A stretch of DNA of 64,000 nt from Clostridiaceae bacterium (GCA_039683415.1 JBDKRL010000006.1:13839-77838), one strand, 5' to 3'; counted from the first letter of the stretch, positions 2,978-48,396 are shown. Notes: generated by a model from the sequence alone, not told the origin. Program-made: numbers and translations.

Positions 2978-4141
2978 TTAGTTCGCGCTCAGCGGTTCCG
3001 TACCGCGCTGAAACACGCGGATTGCGTTGCGGGTTCGCTTTGCTTCGTAGAGCGCCTGATCCGCATGGATGAAGAGACGCGCTGCGTTATCCAGATCGGG
3101 GTCGTAGAGCGCCGTGCCGAAGCTCGCCGTAAACCGAAGCTCCGGCGCTTCTTCGATGGAAAGTTCCGTTAAATCCGCCTGCGCCAGTTCGCAGAGGGCA
3201 AGAAAGTCGGTTCTGGAAACGCCGTGCATCAACACGCAAAACTCGTCCCCGCCATAACGGTAAACGGAATCTTCCCCAAAACGTGCCTGGAGGACGCGCG
3301 TAAACGCAATTAAGCACAAATCGCCAATGTGGTGGCCGCAACGGTCGTTGACGTCCTTGAAGTTGTCGATATCCGCAATGGCGAACACATACCCATACGG
3401 GGTGATTCCCGTAGTGAGGTCGCGCAGCGCGTCATGCAGCGCTTTTCTGCTGAATACGCCGGTCAGCTCGTCGATTTGCAGCCTATGCTTAAGCGTTGCG
3501 CGTTCAAGTTCCTTTTGTATGCCCGCTTCGTTTTTCTTTTTTTCATAATGAATGATCACCGCGCAGACCGCGCCGCAGCCAAGCAGCACGACCAGCGCGA
3601 TTAAAAAGTCGAACAGCCGCTCCGAACTTTGAAATACGCTGACCTTATCGACATCCCAGCGAATGAACAGTTCGGACACGATCAAGCTGGAAAACGAGAG
3701 CAGCGTGATCACGCCGGTTAAAACATAGTTTGCGTAAATCGTTGTGAGCAGAATGGCGATGCCAAAGAGAAAATACATCGAAACGAACGCGCTGTGCGCG
3801 GTGAAAAGATCAAAGCAGACCAGCGTATACAGGATCGAAACGGCGTAGACTTTAACGCTTTGTTTCACGCGCCTGGAGCGGACAACGAGCGCGCCGATGG
3901 CCACGAGCAGAAAGCTCACCGCGCTGGGAGCGGCAATAAATTTGAGAATATACCGCCCGACGGTCGTTGAAAGAATATCCGACTGCACGACGAGCGCGCC
4001 AAGCACGCACTCCGCGGCCAGCGCGAGAACCGCCAGCGCGATGCTGAGCTTGAAATGGAGCATCAGCCAGTCGTTTTCGATTCGCGAAAGCTCCTGCCGG
4101 ATGGCATTGATATGGATCGATTCGAGGTGTTCCGTTTCCAT
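2978..4141 (-). CDS. diguanylate cyclase (GGDEF) with N-terminal multi-pass membrane domain
   Basis: About 200 aa of hydrophobic helices, a charged linker, then DELTGVFSRKAL...DIDNFKDVND...YRYGGDEFCV. The RxxD I-site position reads FGED. Confidence 0.85.
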   Translation of the reverse strand: METEHLESIHINAIRQELSRIENDWLMLHFKLSIALAVLALAAECVLGALVVQSDILSTTVGRYILKFIAAPSAVSFLLVAIGALVVRSRRVKQSVKVYAVSILYTLVCFDLFTAHSAFVSMYFLFGIAILLTTIYANYVLTGVITLLSFSSLIVSELFIRWDVDKVSVFQSSERLFDFLIALVVLLGCGAVCAVIIHYEKKKNEAGIQKELERATLKHRLQIDELTGVFSRKALHDALRDLTTGITPYGYVFAIADIDNFKDVNDRCGHHIGDLCLIAFTRVLQARFGEDSVYRYGGDEFCVLMHGVSRTDFLALCELAQADLTELSIEEAPELRFTASFGTALYDPDLDNAARLFIHADQALYEAKRTRNAIRVFQRGTEPLSAN

Positions 4142-43030: not shown

Positions 43031-43612
43031 TTGAAGGGGATCGGAATCAAAAAACGCACGCTTGCGGTTATCGTCATCGTCTTGATCGTTCTCGCCGCGC
43101 TCTGGTTTCTGCGCGGGCAGACGACGGACGAACACGCGGCGATCTCCCCGCAGGCAACAAGTTCGCTGGTTGCGCTTGACGGCGCGGAAAGCGCCGCCGA
43201 ACCAGCGCAGCAAACCGAAGAACAAGCGGCGGCAAAAACGGCTGACCCGGAAAACGAAACCGCCCCGGACGAATACGGAGAATACACGGCAAAGGAAGAT
43301 ATTGCCGCGTATCTGGTCGCTTACGGGAAGCTGCCGGAGAACTTTATAACCAAATCCGAAGCGCGCGCCCTCGGTTGGGACGGCGGTGGGCTGGACGACT
43401 GCGCCTACGGCAAATGCATCGGCGGCGACGAGTTCGGCAACTATGAAGGCTTGCTGCCGGAAGAAGCCGGACGCACGTATTACGAGTGCGACGTCGATAC
43501 CCTGCATCAAAACGAACGCGGGGCAAAGCGGATCGTCTTTTCCAGCGACGGGCTGATCTACTATACGGACGACCATTATGAGTCGTTTACGCAGCTTTAC
43601 CCAACGCCGTAA
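43031..43612 (+). CDS. barnase-like secreted/anchored guanyl-specific ribonuclease
   Basis: TTG start, N-terminal TM/signal and an acidic linker. The C-terminal 110 aa parallels barnase: ITKSEARALGW, GGDEFGNYEGLLPEE..RTYYECD, RIVFSSDGLIYYTDDHYESF. The positions of K27, E73, R83, R87 and H102 are all conserved. Confidence 0.85.
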   Translation: MKGIGIKKRTLAVIVIVLIVLAALWFLRGQTTDEHAAISPQATSSLVALDGAESAAEPAQQTEEQAAAKTADPENETAPDEYGEYTAKEDIAAYLVAYGKLPENFITKSEARALGWDGGGLDDCAYGKCIGGDEFGNYEGLLPEEAGRTYYECDVDTLHQNERGAKRIVFSSDGLIYYTDDHYESFTQLYPTP

Positions 43613-43633
43613 CAAAGAGAAGAGGGGATGCGC

Positions 43634-43921
43634 ATGCAAAGAAGACGAGTCGTCGTGCTCAACGGAAAGCGGATGGACACGCGGGAACACGCGCATTCGC
43701 ACCTGGCGCGACGTCTCCGCCTGCCTTCCTGGTACGGCAGGAATCTCGACGCGCTCTGTGACTGTCTGGCGGAGATTAACGTTCCGACGGTGATTCTGCT
43801 TCGGCATGTACAGACGCTCAAGGACTCCCTGGGCGATTACGGCGGGAAACTGCTTTCGGCGCTTTCCGCCATGACGGGCGAAAATCCAAATATCACCCTT
43901 GTGGTGCACCGAAAATTCTAG
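43634..43921 (+). CDS. barstar-like ribonuclease inhibitor
   Basis: LRLPSWYGRNLDALCDCLAE parallels barstar [20 protein letters not shown] (D35 and D39 conserved). ATG 43634 follows GAGGGG; ATG 43628 is an alternative. Confidence 0.8.
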   Translation: MQRRRVVVLNGKRMDTREHAHSHLARRLRLPSWYGRNLDALCDCLAEINVPTVILLRHVQTLKDSLGDYGGKLLSALSAMTGENPNITLVVHRKF

Positions 43922-43956
43922 ACCGACGCGTGCCGTATCCAATCGGCGCGCGTTTT

Positions 43957-43983
43957 GTTTGCGGGTACGCAAAACGTTTTTTT
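43957..43983 (+). terminator. intrinsic terminator after barstar
   Basis: GTTTGCG-GGTA-CGCAAAC followed by GTTTTTTT. Confidence 0.75.
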
Positions 43984-44296
43984 ACGCGCAACCAAGCGGA
44001 TACGCCGCTGTTGACCGGAGCACGAACCACAGGGTATACTGTCAGGGTAGATATTTAAACTGAAATTCGCTTTTTCGGTCGGTCGGCGCTTCCACATCGG
44101 GCTGACGGCAACGATATACAGCAGAAACGTACGGCATTGTCAACGAAATGAACAGTGCAAAACTGTGCATAAGCGTTTTGCGTTTGCATCCCCGCTGGAT
44201 CATTTGACTATCGGGAGCAATCAAACCGAAACAGAATTCTACCGGACGCGTATACTGATCCGGAAAAATAAAAACAGAAAGTGAGGGGAAGCCGAC

Positions 44297-45649
44297 ATGG
44301 GTATGGTGCAGTCGCTGATAGACGGGCTAATCGTCTTTATGGCGGCAATCCTCCTGTTGTTTGCGGCGCTGCTTGGCGCGCTCCGCTTTTCGCGGGCGGC
44401 CAAAAGCAGACAGATTCAAAAGATGCGGGAACGTCTCATCTGCCTGCTTTCGAGGGAAGCCGAAACGCAGCGGATGAAAAACGGGCTGATCGATATGGTC
44501 AGGCCGGGCGGAAAAGAAATCTCCGCCGGTTCGATGAGCGGCAGCGGCGGCATAGAAGGCATCCGCGGCATTCGCTCCCTGCGGGGCTTGCAGGTGATTT
44601 CCGAAACGGCGGACGAACTCACCTCGCCGCAGGAGCGCGCGCGCCTCGCGCTTGCGGTCGGCGGGGAATGGTACGCGCGATACCTCAAAAAAACGCTGAT
44701 TGGCGGAACCGTCGATTCCATCGTGCTGGCGCTCAAGCTCACGGGTTCGCTGGGGCTTCGGCAGTTTGTGCCCGACATACTGACCCAGATTTACTGCTAC
44801 CGTTCGACCACGCAGGTTCAGCATATCGGCATGCTTTCGCTCTGCCTGCTCGGCGCGGAAAAGGAACTTGTCTCCATCTGCCGCGACCAGACCGTTGCGT
44901 CCCTGCTGTCGTTCCGCACGCTGGAAGAGCTGTTTGACCGGTATCAGGGCGACCGTGAACGGCTCTGCAAGGCGCTCATCGATAGCGCGGCGGATCAGTA
45001 CATCCGGCGCACCTGCATCAAAACCATCGGCGAACGCGGATATGCGCGTCTTGCCGCCAGCGTTCAACGCTATCTGACCTGCGGCAAACCGAATGTTCAA
45101 ATAGACGCGGTCCGCGCGCTGGGACAGCTGCGTTACCGGCCAGCTTACGAACAAATTCGCTCCTTTGCCTCGGATGAAAATTGGGAAATGCGCCTGACCG
45201 CCGCAACGGCGCTCGGGCTTTACGGCGTGGAGGAGAATATTGAGCCGCTCCTTTTCCTGCTCTGCGACAGTCAGTGGTGGGTGCGGTGCCGCGCCGCGGA
45301 AGCGCTGACGCAGTACCCAAACCGGGAAGAACTGCTCCGCCGGGTGGAAGCGACGAACGACCGCTTTGCCGGGGAGATGATGCGCTTTGCGCTGGATAAG
45401 GATGCTCTTTTTCAAATGGAAGCGGCCGGCGGCCGCTCTGCCGGGGAGGCGACGCCCTCTGCGCTGGATAAGGACACGCTGTTTCAACTGGAATTGGCCG
45501 GTAGCCGCTCTGCCGGGGAGGCGGCGCCCTCTGCGCTGGATAAGGACACGCTGTTTCAACTGGAATTGGCCGGTAGCCGCTCTGCCGGAGAGGCGACGCC
45601 CTCTGCGCTGGATAAGGAAGCTCTGTTTCAAAAGGAGGCGGAAGAATGA
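44297..45649 (+). CDS. membrane-anchored HEAT-repeat protein with C-terminal 24-aa tandem repeats
   Basis: N-terminal TM helix (LIVFMAAILLLFAALLGAL). HEAT-like units (DAVRALGQL, DENWEMRLTAATALGL, DSQWWVRCRAAEALTQ). Ends with 3.6 copies of ALDKDTLFQLELAGSRSAGEA(A/T)PS. Confidence 0.7.
   Translation: MGMVQSLIDGLIVFMAAILLLFAALLGALRFSRAAKSRQIQKMRERLICLLSREAETQRMKNGLIDMVRPGGKEISAGSMSGSGGIEGIRGIRSLRGLQVISETADELTSPQERARLALAVGGEWYARYLKKTLIGGTVDSIVLALKLTGSLGLRQFVPDILTQIYCYRSTTQVQHIGMLSLCLLGAEKELVSICRDQTVASLLSFRTLEELFDRYQGDRERLCKALIDSAADQYIRRTCIKTIGERGYARLAASVQRYLTCGKPNVQIDAVRALGQLRYRPAYEQIRSFASDENWEMRLTAATALGLYGVEENIEPLLFLLCDSQWWVRCRAAEALTQYPNREELLRRVEATNDRFAGEMMRFALDKDALFQMEAAGGRSAGEATPSALDKDTLFQLELAGSRSAGEAAPSALDKDTLFQLELAGSRSAGEATPSALDKEALFQKEAEE
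45389..45649 (+). repeat. 72-bp in-frame tandem repeat, about 3.6 copies
   Basis: Copies start at 45389, 45461, 45533 and 45605 (partial). The middle copies are near-identical. Confidence 0.95.
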
Positions 45650-47238
45650 ACCTGATTCTGCGTGAAACCGTCCTCGTTTTGAACTATCTGCTTTTGTTTG
45701 CCGCTCTCGCAGGCGGGACGGTGTATTTTATCGAGCTTTGCTTCTCCGCCGTAAAAACAGGCAAGTACGTCCGCTCGCTTTCGTATGTCGATTACCGCAG
45801 GTTTTTGGATTCCGAACATATGGTTCCGGTTTCGCTGATCGTTTCCGCGCGAAACGCCGCGGGCGAACTCGTTGAAACGGTGAATAACCTGCTCGCGCTC
45901 GATTTTCCGCAATACGAACTGATTGTGGTCAACGACGGCTCGGATGACGATACGCTTGTCCGTTTGATACAGGCGTTCGGACTGCTGCCGTTTCAGCAGC
46001 CGTACCGGAAACTGCTGGAGACGGGCGAAATACATACCGTTTACCGCGCGGCAAAGGACGCGCGCCTGATTGTGCTGGACAAAGCCCGTGCCGGACGGGC
46101 GGACGCGCTGAACGCGGGGATCAACCTATCTTCCTACCCGGTGATCGTTGCCGCGAACGCGGGCGTCCGTTTTGAAAAAAGCGCGCTGCTGAAAATCATG
46201 TATTCGTTTGTGAGCGATCCTTCCTGCGTCGCCGTCGGCGGCATGGTGCGCTTGGACTGCGGGCAGGGAACAGGTCAAGAAAAACTGAGCGAAACAAAAG
46301 CAGACAAACAGGGCGAAATAATAGAAGAAAAACAGAGCGAAACGACAGTTGGAAAACAAAGCGGAACAATAGAAGAAAAACAGAGCGAAACGACAGTCGG
46401 AAAACAAAGCGGAACAATAGAAAAAAAACAGGGCAAAATAAAAACAATAAAAAAACCGGTGATCGCGCTGCGCACGGTGGCCAATCTCCGCGCACGCATG
46501 ACTGGTCGGCTCGGCTATCATCTGCTCGGCGTCCATCCGCTGGTTCCGGTTGCGTTTTGCGCGCTGAATAAAGCGGTGGTCGTGGAAGCGGGCGGCTACG
46601 CGCCGGACTGCGCCGGAGAGGATATGGAGCTGCTGCTGCGCGTGCATACGCTGCTGCAAAAGAAAAAGAAGAAATACGCCGTGCGTTTTCTGCCGGATCC
46701 GGTTTGCCGGGTCTGCTCGCCGGAACGGCTCACGGACGATCAAAAGCTGCAAAAACGGCTCCAACTGGGATTGAACGACAGTCTGCGGGCGCACAGGCGC
46801 ATGGCGCTGCGCGCCGCGTACGGCAAAATCGGCATGTTCTGCCTGCCGTATTACTGGCTGTTCGGCTGCGCGGCTCCCGTACTCGAAGCATTCACGCTGG
46901 TGTTCGTTGCCCTTTCCTGCGCGCTCGGCATTGTCAGCGTATGGTTCATGGTTTCGTTCTACCTGATGGCGGCGCTTTGCCGGACGGTGCTTTCGGCGGG
47001 CGCGCTGCTGACGGAGGAAAACACGTTTTTGCTGCGTCCCAATCCCGATCGGCTGCTGCGGCTGTTTTTCTATGCGGTCATGGAAAACGCAGGGTTTCGG
47101 CAGATCAGCGCGTTCAGCCGTACGTTTGCAATCCTGGGGTACCGCGCCGAGAAAAACCGCTGGCGGGCGCAGGGGAGACCGGACGTTTTTGAGGACCTGC
47201 TGAAAAGCACAGAAAAAACGCCGAAACAACAGCATTGA
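45646..47238 (+). CDS. family-2 glycosyltransferase-like membrane protein (IcaA/PgaC/NodC-like fold, apparently degenerate active site)
   Basis: ATGA overlap with the upstream gene. Retains VNDGSDDDT, GRADALNAGI, GEDMEL and a C-terminal TM bundle. The DxD position reads VAANAG and the QxxRW position reads QKRLQL. A Lys/Glu/Gln-rich repeat insertion lies mid-domain. Confidence 0.8.
   Translation: MNLILRETVLVLNYLLLFAALAGGTVYFIELCFSAVKTGKYVRSLSYVDYRRFLDSEHMVPVSLIVSARNAAGELVETVNNLLALDFPQYELIVVNDGSDDDTLVRLIQAFGLLPFQQPYRKLLETGEIHTVYRAAKDARLIVLDKARAGRADALNAGINLSSYPVIVAANAGVRFEKSALLKIMYSFVSDPSCVAVGGMVRLDCGQGTGQEKLSETKADKQGEIIEEKQSETTVGKQSGTIEEKQSETTVGKQSGTIEKKQGKIKTIKKPVIALRTVANLRARMTGRLGYHLLGVHPLVPVAFCALNKAVVVEAGGYAPDCAGEDMELLLRVHTLLQKKKKKYAVRFLPDPVCRVCSPERLTDDQKLQKRLQLGLNDSLRAHRRMALRAAYGKIGMFCLPYYWLFGCAAPVLEAFTLVFVALSCALGIVSVWFMVSFYLMAALCRTVLSAGALLTEENTFLLRPNPDRLLRLFFYAVMENAGFRQISAFSRTFAILGYRAEKNRWRAQGRPDVFEDLLKSTEKTPKQQH
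46276..46455 (+). repeat. 48-bp in-frame A-rich tandem repeat, 2 near-perfect copies plus 2 degenerate copies
   Basis: 46321-46368 and 46369-46416 differ at one base (IEEKQSETTVGKQSGT). Degenerate copies flank them on both sides. Confidence 0.9.
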
Positions 47239-47248
47239 ATTTTTAATC

Positions 47249-47274
47249 CGCCGGGGCAAAACTCCGGCGTTTTT
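47249..47274 (+). terminator. intrinsic terminator after the GT2-like gene
   Basis: CGCCGG-ggcaaaact-CCGGCG followed by TTTTT. Confidence 0.65.
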
Positions 47275-47401
47275 GCTGCAAAGCGGCATACCGTTCGTTC
47301 TGTTTGAGATGATCACAGCCGTTTTCTCTCCCCCAGTCATCTGCGGGTGACAGCCCCCTTCGTCAGATGTGGCCAATTGATGAGGGCTTCTTAAACGCTA
47401 A

Positions 47402-47429
47402 CGCCGAGGCAACAGCTCCGGCGTTTTTT
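47402..47429 (+). terminator. second, diverged copy of the same terminator-like element
   Basis: cgccgaggcaacagctccggcgTTTTTT; about 38 bp similar to 47248-47285. Confidence 0.45.
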
Positions 47430-47481
47430 GCTGCACTGCGGCGATTCAAAAATGCAGGTAAATAATATATAAAAAAATCAT

Positions 47482-47510
47482 TTGGCAGTAGCAGATTCTT
47501 CTTGTATACT
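47482..47510 (+). promoter_or_regulatory. promoter TTGGCA-17-TATACT
   Basis: TTGGCA 47482-47487 and TATACT 47505-47510, with an A/T-rich UP-like region upstream. Confidence 0.6.
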
Positions 47511-47670
47511 ATATTTGGTGAAGATTGGCATGCTTTCATCGGTAAGCGCTCAATGATTTCTTTCCGGAAGCATATACAAGCGCCGTTCCCGCCGCGAGGC
47601 GGCAAGGCCGGAGTCCATCCGGAACATCCGACCCGCCGGGAGGCGGCATCTTTTGAAACGAGGAAAAACT

Positions 47671-48396
47671 ATGCTGCGGCTGCAGAAATATCTTGCGGAG
47701 GCGGGCGTCGCTTCCAGGCGCGCGGGCGAAGAACTGATCGCAGCCGGACGCGTCAGCGTCAACGGCGAAGTGGCGCATATCGGCATGAGCGTCGATCCCG
47801 ATCACGATTCGGTTGCGCTGGACGGAAAACCCGTCAGCAAAAAAGAGCCGACCATCACCGTTGCGCTCTACAAACCCAAGGGCGTCGTGAGCACGTCCGA
47901 CGATCCGGAAGGACGAAAGACCGTTCAGGAGTATGTGCGCAACATCCCCGCGCGGCTCTATAACGTCGGCAGGCTCGACATCAACTCCGAAGGCCTGCTG
48001 CTGATGACCAACGACGGCGAACTGGCCTACCGCATGACGCACCCGAAATTCGCGGTGGAAAAGACCTATTACGCCATCTGCGACGGAAAGCTCGCGGCTT
48101 CCGAAATTGCGCTGCTCGTCAACGGCGTTCAGTTGGAGGACGGCATGACGGCTCCGGCAAAGGTGGAGCATGTCCGCGCGACAAAAACAGGGGATACGTC
48201 CTTTAGCATTACGATTCACGAAGGCAAAAACCGCCAGATCCGGCGGATGCTGGAAGCGGTCGGCCACCGCACCCTGCGGCTCAAGCGCGAACGGTTCGGG
48301 CCGATTACGCTCGGCGAAATGCAGCCGGGGGAAGTGCGCCAGCTGACGGAACGGGAAGTTGCCGCGCTCAAAAGGGATCTCGTCCCGAAGAAGTAA
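47671..48396 (+). CDS. pseudouridine synthase, RsuA/RluB family with S4 domain
   Basis: Trimmed to MLRLQKYLAEAGVASRRAGEELIAAGRVSVNG (S4 domain). Catalytic GRLDINSEGLLL. Confidence 0.85.
   Translation: MLRLQKYLAEAGVASRRAGEELIAAGRVSVNGEVAHIGMSVDPDHDSVALDGKPVSKKEPTITVALYKPKGVVSTSDDPEGRKTVQEYVRNIPARLYNVGRLDINSEGLLLMTNDGELAYRMTHPKFAVEKTYYAICDGKLAASEIALLVNGVQLEDGMTAPAKVEHVRATKTGDTSFSITIHEGKNRQIRRMLEAVGHRTLRLKRERFGPITLGEMQPGEVRQLTEREVAALKRDLVPKK

Follow-up and report, generated by a model that had tools for sequence, protein, structure and literature searches.

Two overlapping genes in a 64,000-nucleotide stretch of a Clostridiaceae genome (the whole stretch analysed, hereafter the window) encode a membrane-anchored HEAT-repeat protein and a family 2 glycosyltransferase (GT2) of the processive-synthase type whose catalytic motifs have degenerated. 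The two genes are best explained as a self-contained, translationally coupled operon. This operon probably derives from a three-component machine, has lost the gene for a glycoside-hydrolase-like (GH-like) component, and keeps its GT2 as a selected, non-catalytic pseudo-synthase for the HEAT protein.

Layout of the gene pair and its HEAT protein

The pair lies between two terminator-like hairpins, with the following features.

43925-43954, plus strand: terminator-like hairpin after the barstar gene (11-pair stem, then a T tract), the upstream limit of the two-gene unit
44011-44040, plus strand: candidate sigma-70-like promoter, TTGACC, 18-nt spacer, TATACT (predicted by consensus scan, 10/12 matches)
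44297-45649, plus strand: gene for the HEAT-repeat protein, 450 aa, single-pass membrane (ORF, Pfam, hydropathy, alpha-Rep matches, orthologues)
45361-45641, plus strand: in-frame 72-nt tandem repeat, 3.9 copies, at the C-terminus of the HEAT protein (TRF)
45630-45649, plus strand: predicted translational-coupling junction, with Shine-Dalgarno sequence AAAAGGAGG at 45630-45638 and ATGA stop/start overlap at 45646-45649
45646-47238, plus strand: gene for the degenerate processive-type GT2, 530 aa (ORF, AF2 model, Foldseek, homologues)
46277-46443, plus strand: in-frame 48-nt tandem repeat with a 24-nt sub-unit in the GT2 gene (TRF)
47249-47269, plus strand: intrinsic-terminator-like hairpin 11 nt past the GT2 stop (8-pair stem, 7 of them GC, then TTTTT), the downstream limit of the operon

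The first-pass annotation had described the TGA of the HEAT gene as overlapping the ATG of the GT2 gene, with a short sequence element 7 nt upstream. Both the ATGA and the 7-nt gap from GGAGG to ATG were read directly in the sequence. Stop and start codons also overlap or abut in six other loci (L001, L002, L004, L005, L089 and L091). The identical HEAT/GT2 arrangement occurs in an independent assembly, L089 (98% amino acid identity), and the pair in the window is therefore not an assembly artefact. No Rfam matches were found in 43800-47800 and no PADLOC defence-system matches were obtained. An anti-phage or phage origin was rejected, as the locus is a syntenic chromosomal housekeeping context.

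The upstream protein, annotated as one N-terminal transmembrane (TM) helix followed by HEAT repeats, proved to be exactly that. Hydropathy gave a single hydrophobic N-terminal segment (aa 1-35), Pfam returned HEAT_2 (2.3e-17) with HEAT and HEAT_PBS also matching, and consensus alpha-Rep HEAT proteins matched aa 221-366, so that the repeats occupy approximately these residues (nt 44957-45394). The positively charged stretch after the TM helix suggests that the HEAT domain is cytoplasmic. The 72-nt repeat encodes a 24-aa unit, ALDKDTLFQLELAGSRSAGEAxPS, which is species-specific and variable in copy number (the L089 orthologue has 426 aa as compared to 450 aa in the window); it was not found in L002, L004, L005 or L009.

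A link to c-di-GMP was sought within the pair. Pfam and NCBIfam searches returned no match to PilZ, GGDEF, EAL or MshEN among the recognisable domains of either protein, in agreement with the first-pass view that the pair has no c-di-GMP receptor domain. A search for a c-di-GMP motif across the HEAT proteins showed conservation at generic HEAT-repeat consensus positions only. The GGDEF gene reported at 2978-4141 is real; it lies on the minus strand, 41 kb away.

Fold and catalytic motifs of the GT2

The resemblance of the GT2 to processive family 2 synthases, noted by eye, is borne out by structure comparison. The protein comprises an N-terminal TM segment (aa 2-45), a GT-A domain (about aa 61-360), interface helices and a C-terminal TM bundle (about aa 390-497). 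Its AF2 model (pLDDT 84, pTM 0.84) had its best Foldseek matches, at E-values of 1e-8 to 5e-12, among hyaluronan synthases (HAS), BcsA and chitin synthases, the matched structures including Cv-HAS, XlHAS, BcsA and Chs1. In the model, the GT-A domain is joined to a channel-type TM bundle, as is characteristic of processive synthases. The top matches were the Chlorella virus class I HAS (7sp7) and chitin synthases (E 5e-12, TM about 0.55); these share only 10-14% sequence identity with the window GT2 and, unlike it, are single-subunit and catalytically complete.

Pfam GT2 models matched weakly and in pieces. The best-scoring curated family was PgaC_IcaA (TIGR03937), which gave the window GT2 70.9 bits against a cut-off of 422.3; motif-intact relatives scored 129-160 bits against the same cut-off (422), and no NCBIfam equivalog was assigned at cut-off, motif-intact family members included. 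When the sequence of the window GT2 was searched against the PDB, only marginal N-terminal matches appeared. As this was insufficient for mapping motifs onto BcsA, a family profile HMM was aligned to BcsA instead. The 48-nt tandem repeat gives rise to an inserted loop rich in Lys, Glu and Gln and about 60 aa long (aa ~206-270, pLDDT <50) that the alignment places in L089/P0001 only; it is absent from all other homologues.

Alignments with about 190 homologues, together with the profile aligned to BcsA, gave the following motif positions.

45931-45942, plus strand: N96-D97-G98-S99, kept; equivalent of the UDP-binding DDG/NDGS (alignment)
46156-46164, plus strand: N171-A172-G173 at the DxD equivalent, both aspartates lost (family D-A-D-S aligns with BcsA DADH)
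46615-46623, plus strand: G324-E325-D326, kept; equivalent of the BcsA TED catalytic-base motif (alignment, profile)
46747-46761, plus strand: L368-Q-K-R371-L372 at the QxxRW equivalent, Q and W lost, R kept (family QRkRW against BcsA QRGRW)

The degeneracy that had been described from the sequence thus survived profile- and structure-anchored alignment of the DxD, TED and QxxRW sites. At the metal/UDP-binding DxD no acidic residue is present (N171-A-G173-V in the window GT2, D-A-D-S in the family). The (T/L)xEY-type loop is degenerate as claimed, with RTVAN at the QTTEY position, and VPVAFC stands at the ISGAFG position. For QxxRW the loss had been recognised correctly, but the register was off by one and R371 is in fact kept. 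Retention of VNDGS, GRADALNAG and GEDMEL was confirmed. Of the processive-synthase signature, the first Asp and GED are present, whereas DxD and Q(Q/R)xRW are not.

The intact family and the loss of its third component

A HEAT protein paired with a GT2 marks out a very large synthase family that spans multiple phyla and is apparently uncharacterised. Among the best 80 loci of a genome scan, about 75 had a HEAT orthologue preceding the GT2 gene; the window likewise has its HEAT gene directly upstream, with overlapping codons. The pairing, which the first-pass annotation could not match to the synthase architectures familiar to it, is a hallmark of the family and not a peculiarity of the window. 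In more than 120 canonical sequences from many phyla, NDGS, GKADALNAG, D[AG]DS, Q..EYLRAF, ISGAFG.F, GEDMEL and QR.RW..G are nearly invariant; from the last six of these the window GT2 keeps ADALNAG and GEDMEL only. Family loci occur, for example, in Geobacillus, Anoxybacillus, Paenibacillus, Clostridium, Henriciella, Lysobacter and the Christensenellaceae (L009 and L010), and they often adjoin GGDEF and receiver-domain genes. No description of a HEAT + GT2 synthase module was found in the literature, nor any curated family, and there was likewise no evidence there that the two-gene module is an already characterised polysaccharide locus.

The family has a third, extracytoplasmic component, which in Gram-positive members is a protein with the glycoside-hydrolase fold of clan GH-A (no Pfam match) and in Gram-negative members a TPR/YaiO barrel. 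Natural fusions among relatives join GH to HEAT, HEAT to GT2 (15 representatives), GT2 to GH, and all three as HEAT-GT2-GH. Fusion in several combinations ties the HEAT, GT2 and GH-like proteins into one machine.

Known synthases offer partial parallels. Like BcsA-BcsB, the window GT2 has a membrane-integrated processive fold with a C-terminal TM channel by Foldseek, the family motifs map one-to-one onto HAKAGN, DADH, TED and QRGRW of BcsA, and canonical relatives have a single-pass partner, an extracytoplasmic component and adjoining c-di-GMP genes. In contrast to BcsA-BcsB, the window pair lacks PilZ, and in place of BcsB it has a TM-anchored, putatively cytoplasmic HEAT solenoid; the extracytoplasmic component of the family has a clan GH-A fold, and the window GT2 lacks DxD and the Q and W of QxxRW. 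PgaC and IcaA depend on a small membrane protein (PgaD or IcaD). They share with the window GT2 the domain order TM, GT-A, TM bundle; however, the window partner is different, no deacetylase gene accompanies it, and the score is far under the PgaC/IcaA cut-off. A possible lead comes from a Lysobacteraceae locus (L067) with the order HEAT, GT2, TPR/YaiO barrel, 334-aa protein. It can be likened, by gene order only, to xagABCD of Xanthomonas, a four-gene biofilm polysaccharide operon with a glycosyltransferase in second place and a polymer of unknown nature. Xanthomonas was absent from the best 120 homologues of the L067 GT2, and a "HEAT repeat" literature match in that genus was the effector XopN, not a HEAT/GT2 module.

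Comparison at the same locus shows what the window lineage has lost. In L009 and L010 a GH-like gene, a HEAT gene and a motif-intact GT2 gene lie between barstar and rluB, the exact position of the window pair. The window shares the HEAT partner and the stop/start coupling with the family at large, and its GT2 is 48-54% identical to motif-intact Christensenellaceae members. The GH-like gene is present in 11 of 11 motif-intact loci of the Christensenellaceae group and absent from all eight degenerate syntenic loci. Neither a remnant of this gene nor a TPR/YaiO barrel gene nor a second family member was found in the 64-kb window. Within the degenerate clade, whose monophyly rests on a neighbour-joining tree prone to long-branch attraction, motif loss is stepwise: sister lineages at the same locus additionally lose NDGS, GED and RW, with the ORF and the HEAT partner staying. 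No motif-intact paralogue was seen for two degenerate assemblies (L045 and L085) among the best 80 loci of one scan, a set to which the window's own assembly does not belong.

With DxD, QxxEY, SGAFG and the Q and W of QxxRW lost and the GH-like gene deleted, the window GT2 most probably no longer polymerises or translocates glycan. Some residual nucleotide-sugar binding or atypical activity may persist, as D97, E325/D326, R371 and ADALNAG remain, unlike in more decayed cousins. It is unlikely, however, that the GT2 is still an active enzyme with an unorthodox site, metal-independent or non-processive and transferring, for example, single sugars or short oligosaccharides onto lipid or protein. 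Some GT-A enzymes do function without DxD, using basic residues instead, and in the syntenic orthologue P0038 an Arg replaces the first DxD Asp; the retained residues and the purifying selection on the GT2 are also consistent with activity. Against this stand the combined motif losses, which include both the Q and the EY of QxxEY, the deletion of the GH-like partner, and the fact that the acceptor/translocation region decays fastest. That sister lineages drop further motifs yet keep the ORF and HEAT partner argues that the conserved property is not catalysis. The first-pass annotation had left the choice between a pseudoenzyme or scaffold and an unorthodox active site; stepwise loss, faster GT2 evolution, GH-like deletion, purifying selection and the near-invariant motifs of relatives favour the former.

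Selection on the pair and its possible role

Proteins encoded next to the pair (ABC and OadA) are 80-94% identical across the compared genomes. Motif-intact GT2 proteins are 82-97% identical as compared to 37-58% for degenerate ones, and HEAT proteins show 49-61% in every comparison. The GT2 of the degenerate clade thus evolves several-fold faster, and the constraint on the HEAT protein is unchanged. Decay is strongest in the QxxRW/interface-helix region, TM1 and the C-terminal tail and weakest in the N-terminal half of GT-A.

The GT2 is nevertheless under continued purifying selection. Between the window and L089, the Nei-Gojobori method gave 17 synonymous and 11 non-synonymous differences in the GT2 gene (omega 0.21), and a direct codon tally, 16 synonymous as compared to 11 non-synonymous, rejected neutrality (P=1.5e-4); the HEAT gene gave an omega of 0.05. 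In deeper pairs, where dS is near saturation, omega was 0.10-0.30 for degenerate GT2, 0.03-0.10 for motif-intact GT2 and 0.10-0.17 for HEAT. ORFs are intact in the window, L089, L002, L004, L005, L045, L085 and more than 40 metagenomic relatives. With intact ORFs and omega below 1, a pseudogene was rejected.

These data also make it very improbable that the pair is a functionless relic in slow decay after its exopolysaccharide pathway was abandoned. Such a relic would be compatible with the missing GH-like gene and catalytic motifs, the accelerated GT2, and the low-complexity tandem-repeat insertions of variable copy number in both proteins. It would not be expected to leave full-length ORFs in more than 40 distinct degenerate sequences of 37-58% identity, nor omega values of 0.1-0.3 for the GT2, with neutrality rejected, and 0.05-0.17 for the HEAT protein, its constraint unchanged. 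The stop/start coupling, Shine-Dalgarno sequence and terminator are conserved, and 40 motif-defective GT2 sequences, most of them from the window's clade, share 77 positions with a conservation of at least 85%.

Another alternative is that the GT2, without catalysis of its own, still serves glycan export as a channel or co-subunit that translocates or organises the polymer of an active glycosyltransferase encoded elsewhere. The TM bundle and synthase fold are kept in a model of high confidence, and the motifs LLEE and EN.GYRQ, which lie within the TM bundle and beyond it, are conserved in degenerate and canonical members alike. The segment at the channel entrance (QxxRW/interface helices) is, however, the least conserved of all, at 14-35% identity; the extracytoplasmic partner has been deleted, the window holds no other family member, and no second locus was seen for L045 or L085 among the best 80. 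A channel role appears very improbable.

The preferred reading is that of a retained pseudo-synthase. The pair would descend from a widespread exopolysaccharide machine made of a GH-A-fold extracytoplasmic protein, a HEAT adaptor and a GT2 synthase. Christensenellaceae-like Clostridia form the clade to which the window belongs; this lineage deleted the GH-like gene, and its synthase lost both DxD aspartates together with the acceptor-site motifs QxxEY and SGAFG and, within QxxRW, the Q and the W. The fused genes of relatives and the conserved coupling point to a physical association, and the single-pass HEAT protein and the GT2, with its processive synthase/channel fold, may form a membrane complex. 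The GT2 would then be kept as a non-catalytic membrane partner, a scaffold or anchor with a possible regulatory role, for a HEAT protein whose function persists.

More tentatively, the entire clade of these gut and anaerobic-digester Clostridia may have turned the synthase into a conserved non-catalytic protein that, with HEAT, has a new function in signalling, ligand sensing or envelope organisation, and the conversion may have been repeated in the family. Motif loss does recur: at least one of four motif sets checked is missing from 27 of the 150 nearest cluster representatives, and an independent motif-defective GT2 from soil retains its HEAT partner. Non-catalytic or moonlighting proteins with glycosyltransferase folds include B. 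subtilis EpsE (the clutch), streptococcal GtfB and plant GAUT7. In these, too, the fold is retained for a structural or regulatory role independent of catalysis, but they belong to other folds or families, and a processive membrane synthase paired with a HEAT protein is not among them. We know of no bacterial pseudoenzyme derived from a processive synthase.

The phylum-spanning system of HEAT adaptor, GT2 and GH-A-fold protein may represent a new class of biofilm-matrix machinery. The window's lineage represents a natural experiment in which the enzyme was probably inactivated and a subunit deleted while the pair remained under selection, which argues for a second, non-catalytic role of the HEAT-synthase complex. 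Degenerate and intact versions at one locus in close genomes make comparative genetics straightforward. If the clade-wide conversion is true, it would give bacterial processive polysaccharide synthases their first described pseudoenzyme lineage, and it would indicate that the ancestral machine had a moonlighting role dependent on its partner.

The HEAT-GT2 unit and its two proteins

The genes for the HEAT protein and the family 2 glycosyltransferase-like protein (GT2) are arranged in the window as follows.

Features of the HEAT-GT2 unit
43925-43954: strong hairpin terminator after barstar, the upstream bracket of the unit
44011-44040: promoter-like site upstream of the HEAT gene
44297-45649, same strand as the GT2 ORF: HEAT protein ORF, 450 aa
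45646-47238, same strand as the HEAT ORF: GT2 ORF, 530 aa
47249-47269: hairpin and T tract, 11 nt past the GT2 stop

Because a terminator, a promoter-like site and a 3' hairpin bracket the unit, the two genes look like an independent bicistronic operon among housekeeping genes, with whiA, rapZ, murB, an ABC transporter and barnase/barstar upstream and rluB, oxaloacetate decarboxylase genes, pgsA, rimP and nusA downstream. L089, an independent assembly, has an identical arrangement at 98% protein identity. The junction, read directly as AAAAGGAGG-cggaaga-ATGA, contains the overlap of HEAT stop and GT2 start, and the Shine-Dalgarno sequence 7 nt upstream, that the first-pass annotation had described. 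The genes directly upstream of the operon encode a barnase-type ribonuclease (43031-43612) and its barstar inhibitor (43628-43921), a pair whose synteny is kept in all related genomes. The spacer of ~380 nt between the GT2 terminator and rluB (47270-47652) carries more hairpin/T-tract elements, at about 47405-47430 (by eye) and at 47633-47646, and had no Rfam match.

The first gene had been read as a membrane HEAT-repeat protein with one N-terminal helix, and this holds: a single hydrophobic helix occupies aa 1-35, the protein matches Pfam HEAT_2 (2.3e-17), HEAT and HEAT_PBS, and consensus alpha-Rep HEAT proteins match aa 221-366. The GT2 was matched only piecemeal by Pfam GT2 models and scored 70.9 bits against PgaC_IcaA, so it fails that cut-off (422). 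An alignment of 84 sequences gave an AlphaFold model of the GT2 that is confident except for the loop at aa 206-270 (pLDDT 84.3, pTM 0.84). Foldseek searches with this model returned processive membrane synthases, namely Chlorella-virus and Xenopus hyaluronan synthases, BcsA and chitin synthases. Both genes contain in-frame tandem repeats specific to the window species, one at the HEAT C-terminus (45361-45641, 72 nt x 3.9) and one in the GT2 loop insertion (46277-46443, 48 nt x 3.5). The HEAT protein differs from that of L089 (426 aa) by one 24-aa unit of its repeat.

As the first-pass annotation had noted, neither protein contains a recognisable c-di-GMP receptor domain. The GGDEF gene it reported at 2978-4141 was also confirmed (Pfam 3.3e-30); it is the only one in the window, lies 41 kb from the operon on the opposite (minus) strand and is unlinked to it.

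Catalytic motifs of the GT2

Seven motifs hardly vary among the canonical homologues, which number more than 120 and come from many phyla: NDGS, GKADALNAG, D[AG]DS, Q..EYLRAF, ISGAFG.F, GEDMEL and QR.RW..G. Their identities are fixed by alignment of the canonical-member profile to BcsA, in which they correspond to HAKAGN, DADH, (FFC)GS, TEDAET and QRGRW. The window GT2 keeps N96-D97-G98-S99 and G324-E325-D326, and the lysine of GKADALNAG is replaced by arginine. The DxD position reads N171-A-G173, the QTTEY position RTVAN and the SGAFG position PVAFC, and all three are lost. The Q-R-K-R-W position is mostly lost and reads L368-Q-K-R371-L372. The degeneracy that had been seen by eye is thus borne out, including that of QxxRW, for which the register proposed earlier was off by one.

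The window GT2 works, or once worked, like the synthases of the BcsA, HAS and PgaC type, but it fails two of the defining catalytic features of this class. We rate it as a probable pseudo-synthase, a derivative of processive synthases that is most likely non-catalytic. That it might instead be an unorthodox but active enzyme is favored by the retention of D97, ED and R371, but this reading fits less well.

The canonical three-component family

The 80 best loci of a genome-wide scan come from Bacillota (Bacillus, Geobacillus, Anoxybacillus, Paenibacillus, Clostridium and Christensenellaceae), Bacteroidota, Gemmatimonadota, Pseudomonadota, Actinomycetota and Acidobacteriota, and also from Treponema. 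A HEAT homologue lies immediately upstream of the GT2 in ~75 of the 80, and HEAT pairing is a signature of this GT2 family. Clustering of neighboring genes identified a third conserved component of 700-1100 aa with an N-terminal lipobox or TM segment (GH-like), which has at least 4992 homologues and no match in a Pfam search. Its AlphaFold model (pLDDT 87) resembles TIM-barrel hydrolases of clan GH-A (GH157, GH2, GH5), followed by beta-sandwich domains. Since TNW stands where clan GH-A enzymes have the acid/base NE, the component may itself be non-hydrolytic. Examples (L009:2571-4850, L001:4599-6803 and L040:7224-10451) are extracytoplasmic and lipoprotein-like; some databases label the family 'family 2 glycosyl transferase'.

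Natural fusions speak for one machine of three parts. The 150 nearest cluster representatives include 15 HEAT-GT2, two GT2-GH-like, one GT2-HEAT and one HEAT-GT2-GH-like fusions, and GH-like-HEAT fusions also occur (e.g., P0196, 1111 aa). Other fusion-bearing database proteins are P0369, P0375, P0389 and P0485. From the pairing, the third component and the fusions, we conclude that the canonical system is a synthase-dependent polysaccharide machine with three components. For this system no NCBIfam equivalog reached its cut-off, and a literature search found no published description of a HEAT/GT2/GH-like module; the parent system is apparently undescribed.

In Bacillaceae the operon order is Hpt-GGDEF-REC, HEAT, GT2, GH-like, REC, and in Gram-negatives HEAT-GT2 goes together with a receiver protein and a beta-barrel protein of the TPR/YaiO type. 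Genes for Hpt-GGDEF-REC cyclases, hybrid histidine kinases or receiver proteins that stand alone border the canonical operons (e.g., Anoxybacillus L040:3229-4839 and L040:10451-10825; Henriciella L007:1890-5610), which suggests that the parent system is controlled by c-di-GMP or a phosphorelay. The Agrilutibacter/Lysobacter niabensis locus (L067:4787-9780) encodes HEAT, GT2, TPR/YaiO barrel and a 334-aa protein, an order that resembles the four-gene Xanthomonas biofilm locus xagABCD; the Gram-negative form could possibly be identical with xagABCD.

Loss of the GH-like gene, motif decay and selection

The window GT2 belongs to the HEAT-associated family by descent, but without the third component and the family motifs. 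Degenerate-GT2 loci syntenic with the window are L002/L003, L004, L005, L045, L085 and L089. The two Christensenellaceae chromosomes with L009 and L010 share this synteny and carry GH-like, HEAT and a motif-intact GT2 between barstar and rluB. The GH-like gene is absent from all eight degenerate loci and present in all 11 motif-intact loci of the Christensenellaceae group. Neither a GH-like remnant nor a second family member was found in the 64 kb of the window. The proposal that the GT2 is a non-catalytic channel for the product of another enzyme fits less well than the pseudo-synthase reading.

Across the window-syntenic genomes, the ABC transporter and OadA that flank the unit share 80-94% identity. 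Motif-intact GT2s share 82-97% identity among themselves; degenerate GT2s share 37-58%, both among themselves and with motif-intact ones. HEAT identity is 49-61% in all comparisons, motif-intact lineages included. In a neighbor-joining tree all syntenic degenerates group in a single clade with a long branch, and the motif-intact Christensenellaceae are its sister, a placement in which long-branch attraction is possible.

Motif decay is graded. NDGS and GED are kept in the window GT2 and in the database protein P0038; a second group has VVYGE / DP.. / GEE, and a third has VANS / YPDL / AE.AD and no RW. Decay is strongest in TM1, the C-terminal tail and the QxxRW/interface-helix segment, and weakest in the 46-60 linker and the N-terminal half of the GT-A domain. 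Of the 150 nearest representatives of 50%-identity clusters, 27 are without one or more of four motif sets and ~20 without several, in a sample biased by the degenerate query. P0106, an unrelated degenerate GT2 from a soil metagenome, keeps an overlapping HEAT partner. The soil-metagenome locus L091:1171-3455 holds an independent degenerate GT2 (CDDG / DPG / CED / PRQRW) with an overlapping HEAT partner. P0031 (33 member sequences) has GEA for GED at the catalytic-base position and otherwise canonical motifs; this may be a further inactivation that arose independently, or a variant of the sequence.

The HEAT-GT2 pair is still under selection. Between the window and L089 the GT2 has 17 synonymous and 11 non-synonymous changes (Nei-Gojobori, omega 0.21) and the HEAT gene seven and one (omega 0.05). 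When codons of the GT2 were tallied directly (16 synonymous, 11 non-synonymous), neutrality was rejected (P=1.5e-4; P=6e-4 without the repeat insertion). That the pair is a slowly decaying relic fits less well.

Omega in deeper pairs, for which dS is close to saturation
Degenerate GT2: 0.10-0.30
Motif-intact GT2: 0.03-0.10
HEAT, degenerate lineages: 0.10-0.17
HEAT, motif-intact lineages: 0.05-0.25

The rank of the partners is flipped, the GT2 evolving more slowly in motif-intact lineages and the HEAT protein in degenerate ones. Of the GT2 positions, 77 show conservation of 85% or more across 40 motif-defective sequences, which come mostly from the window clade and in a few cases from other lineages; ADALNAG, R202, GG316-317, LLEE455-458 and R485 are among them.

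The most economical reading starts from an ancestral GH-like/HEAT/GT2 machine for polysaccharide at this locus, from which the extracytoplasmic subunit and the chemistry of polymerisation were lost. The function of the HEAT protein would have been kept after this loss, and the GT2 would have been retained as its non-catalytic membrane partner, under constraint that is weaker but real.
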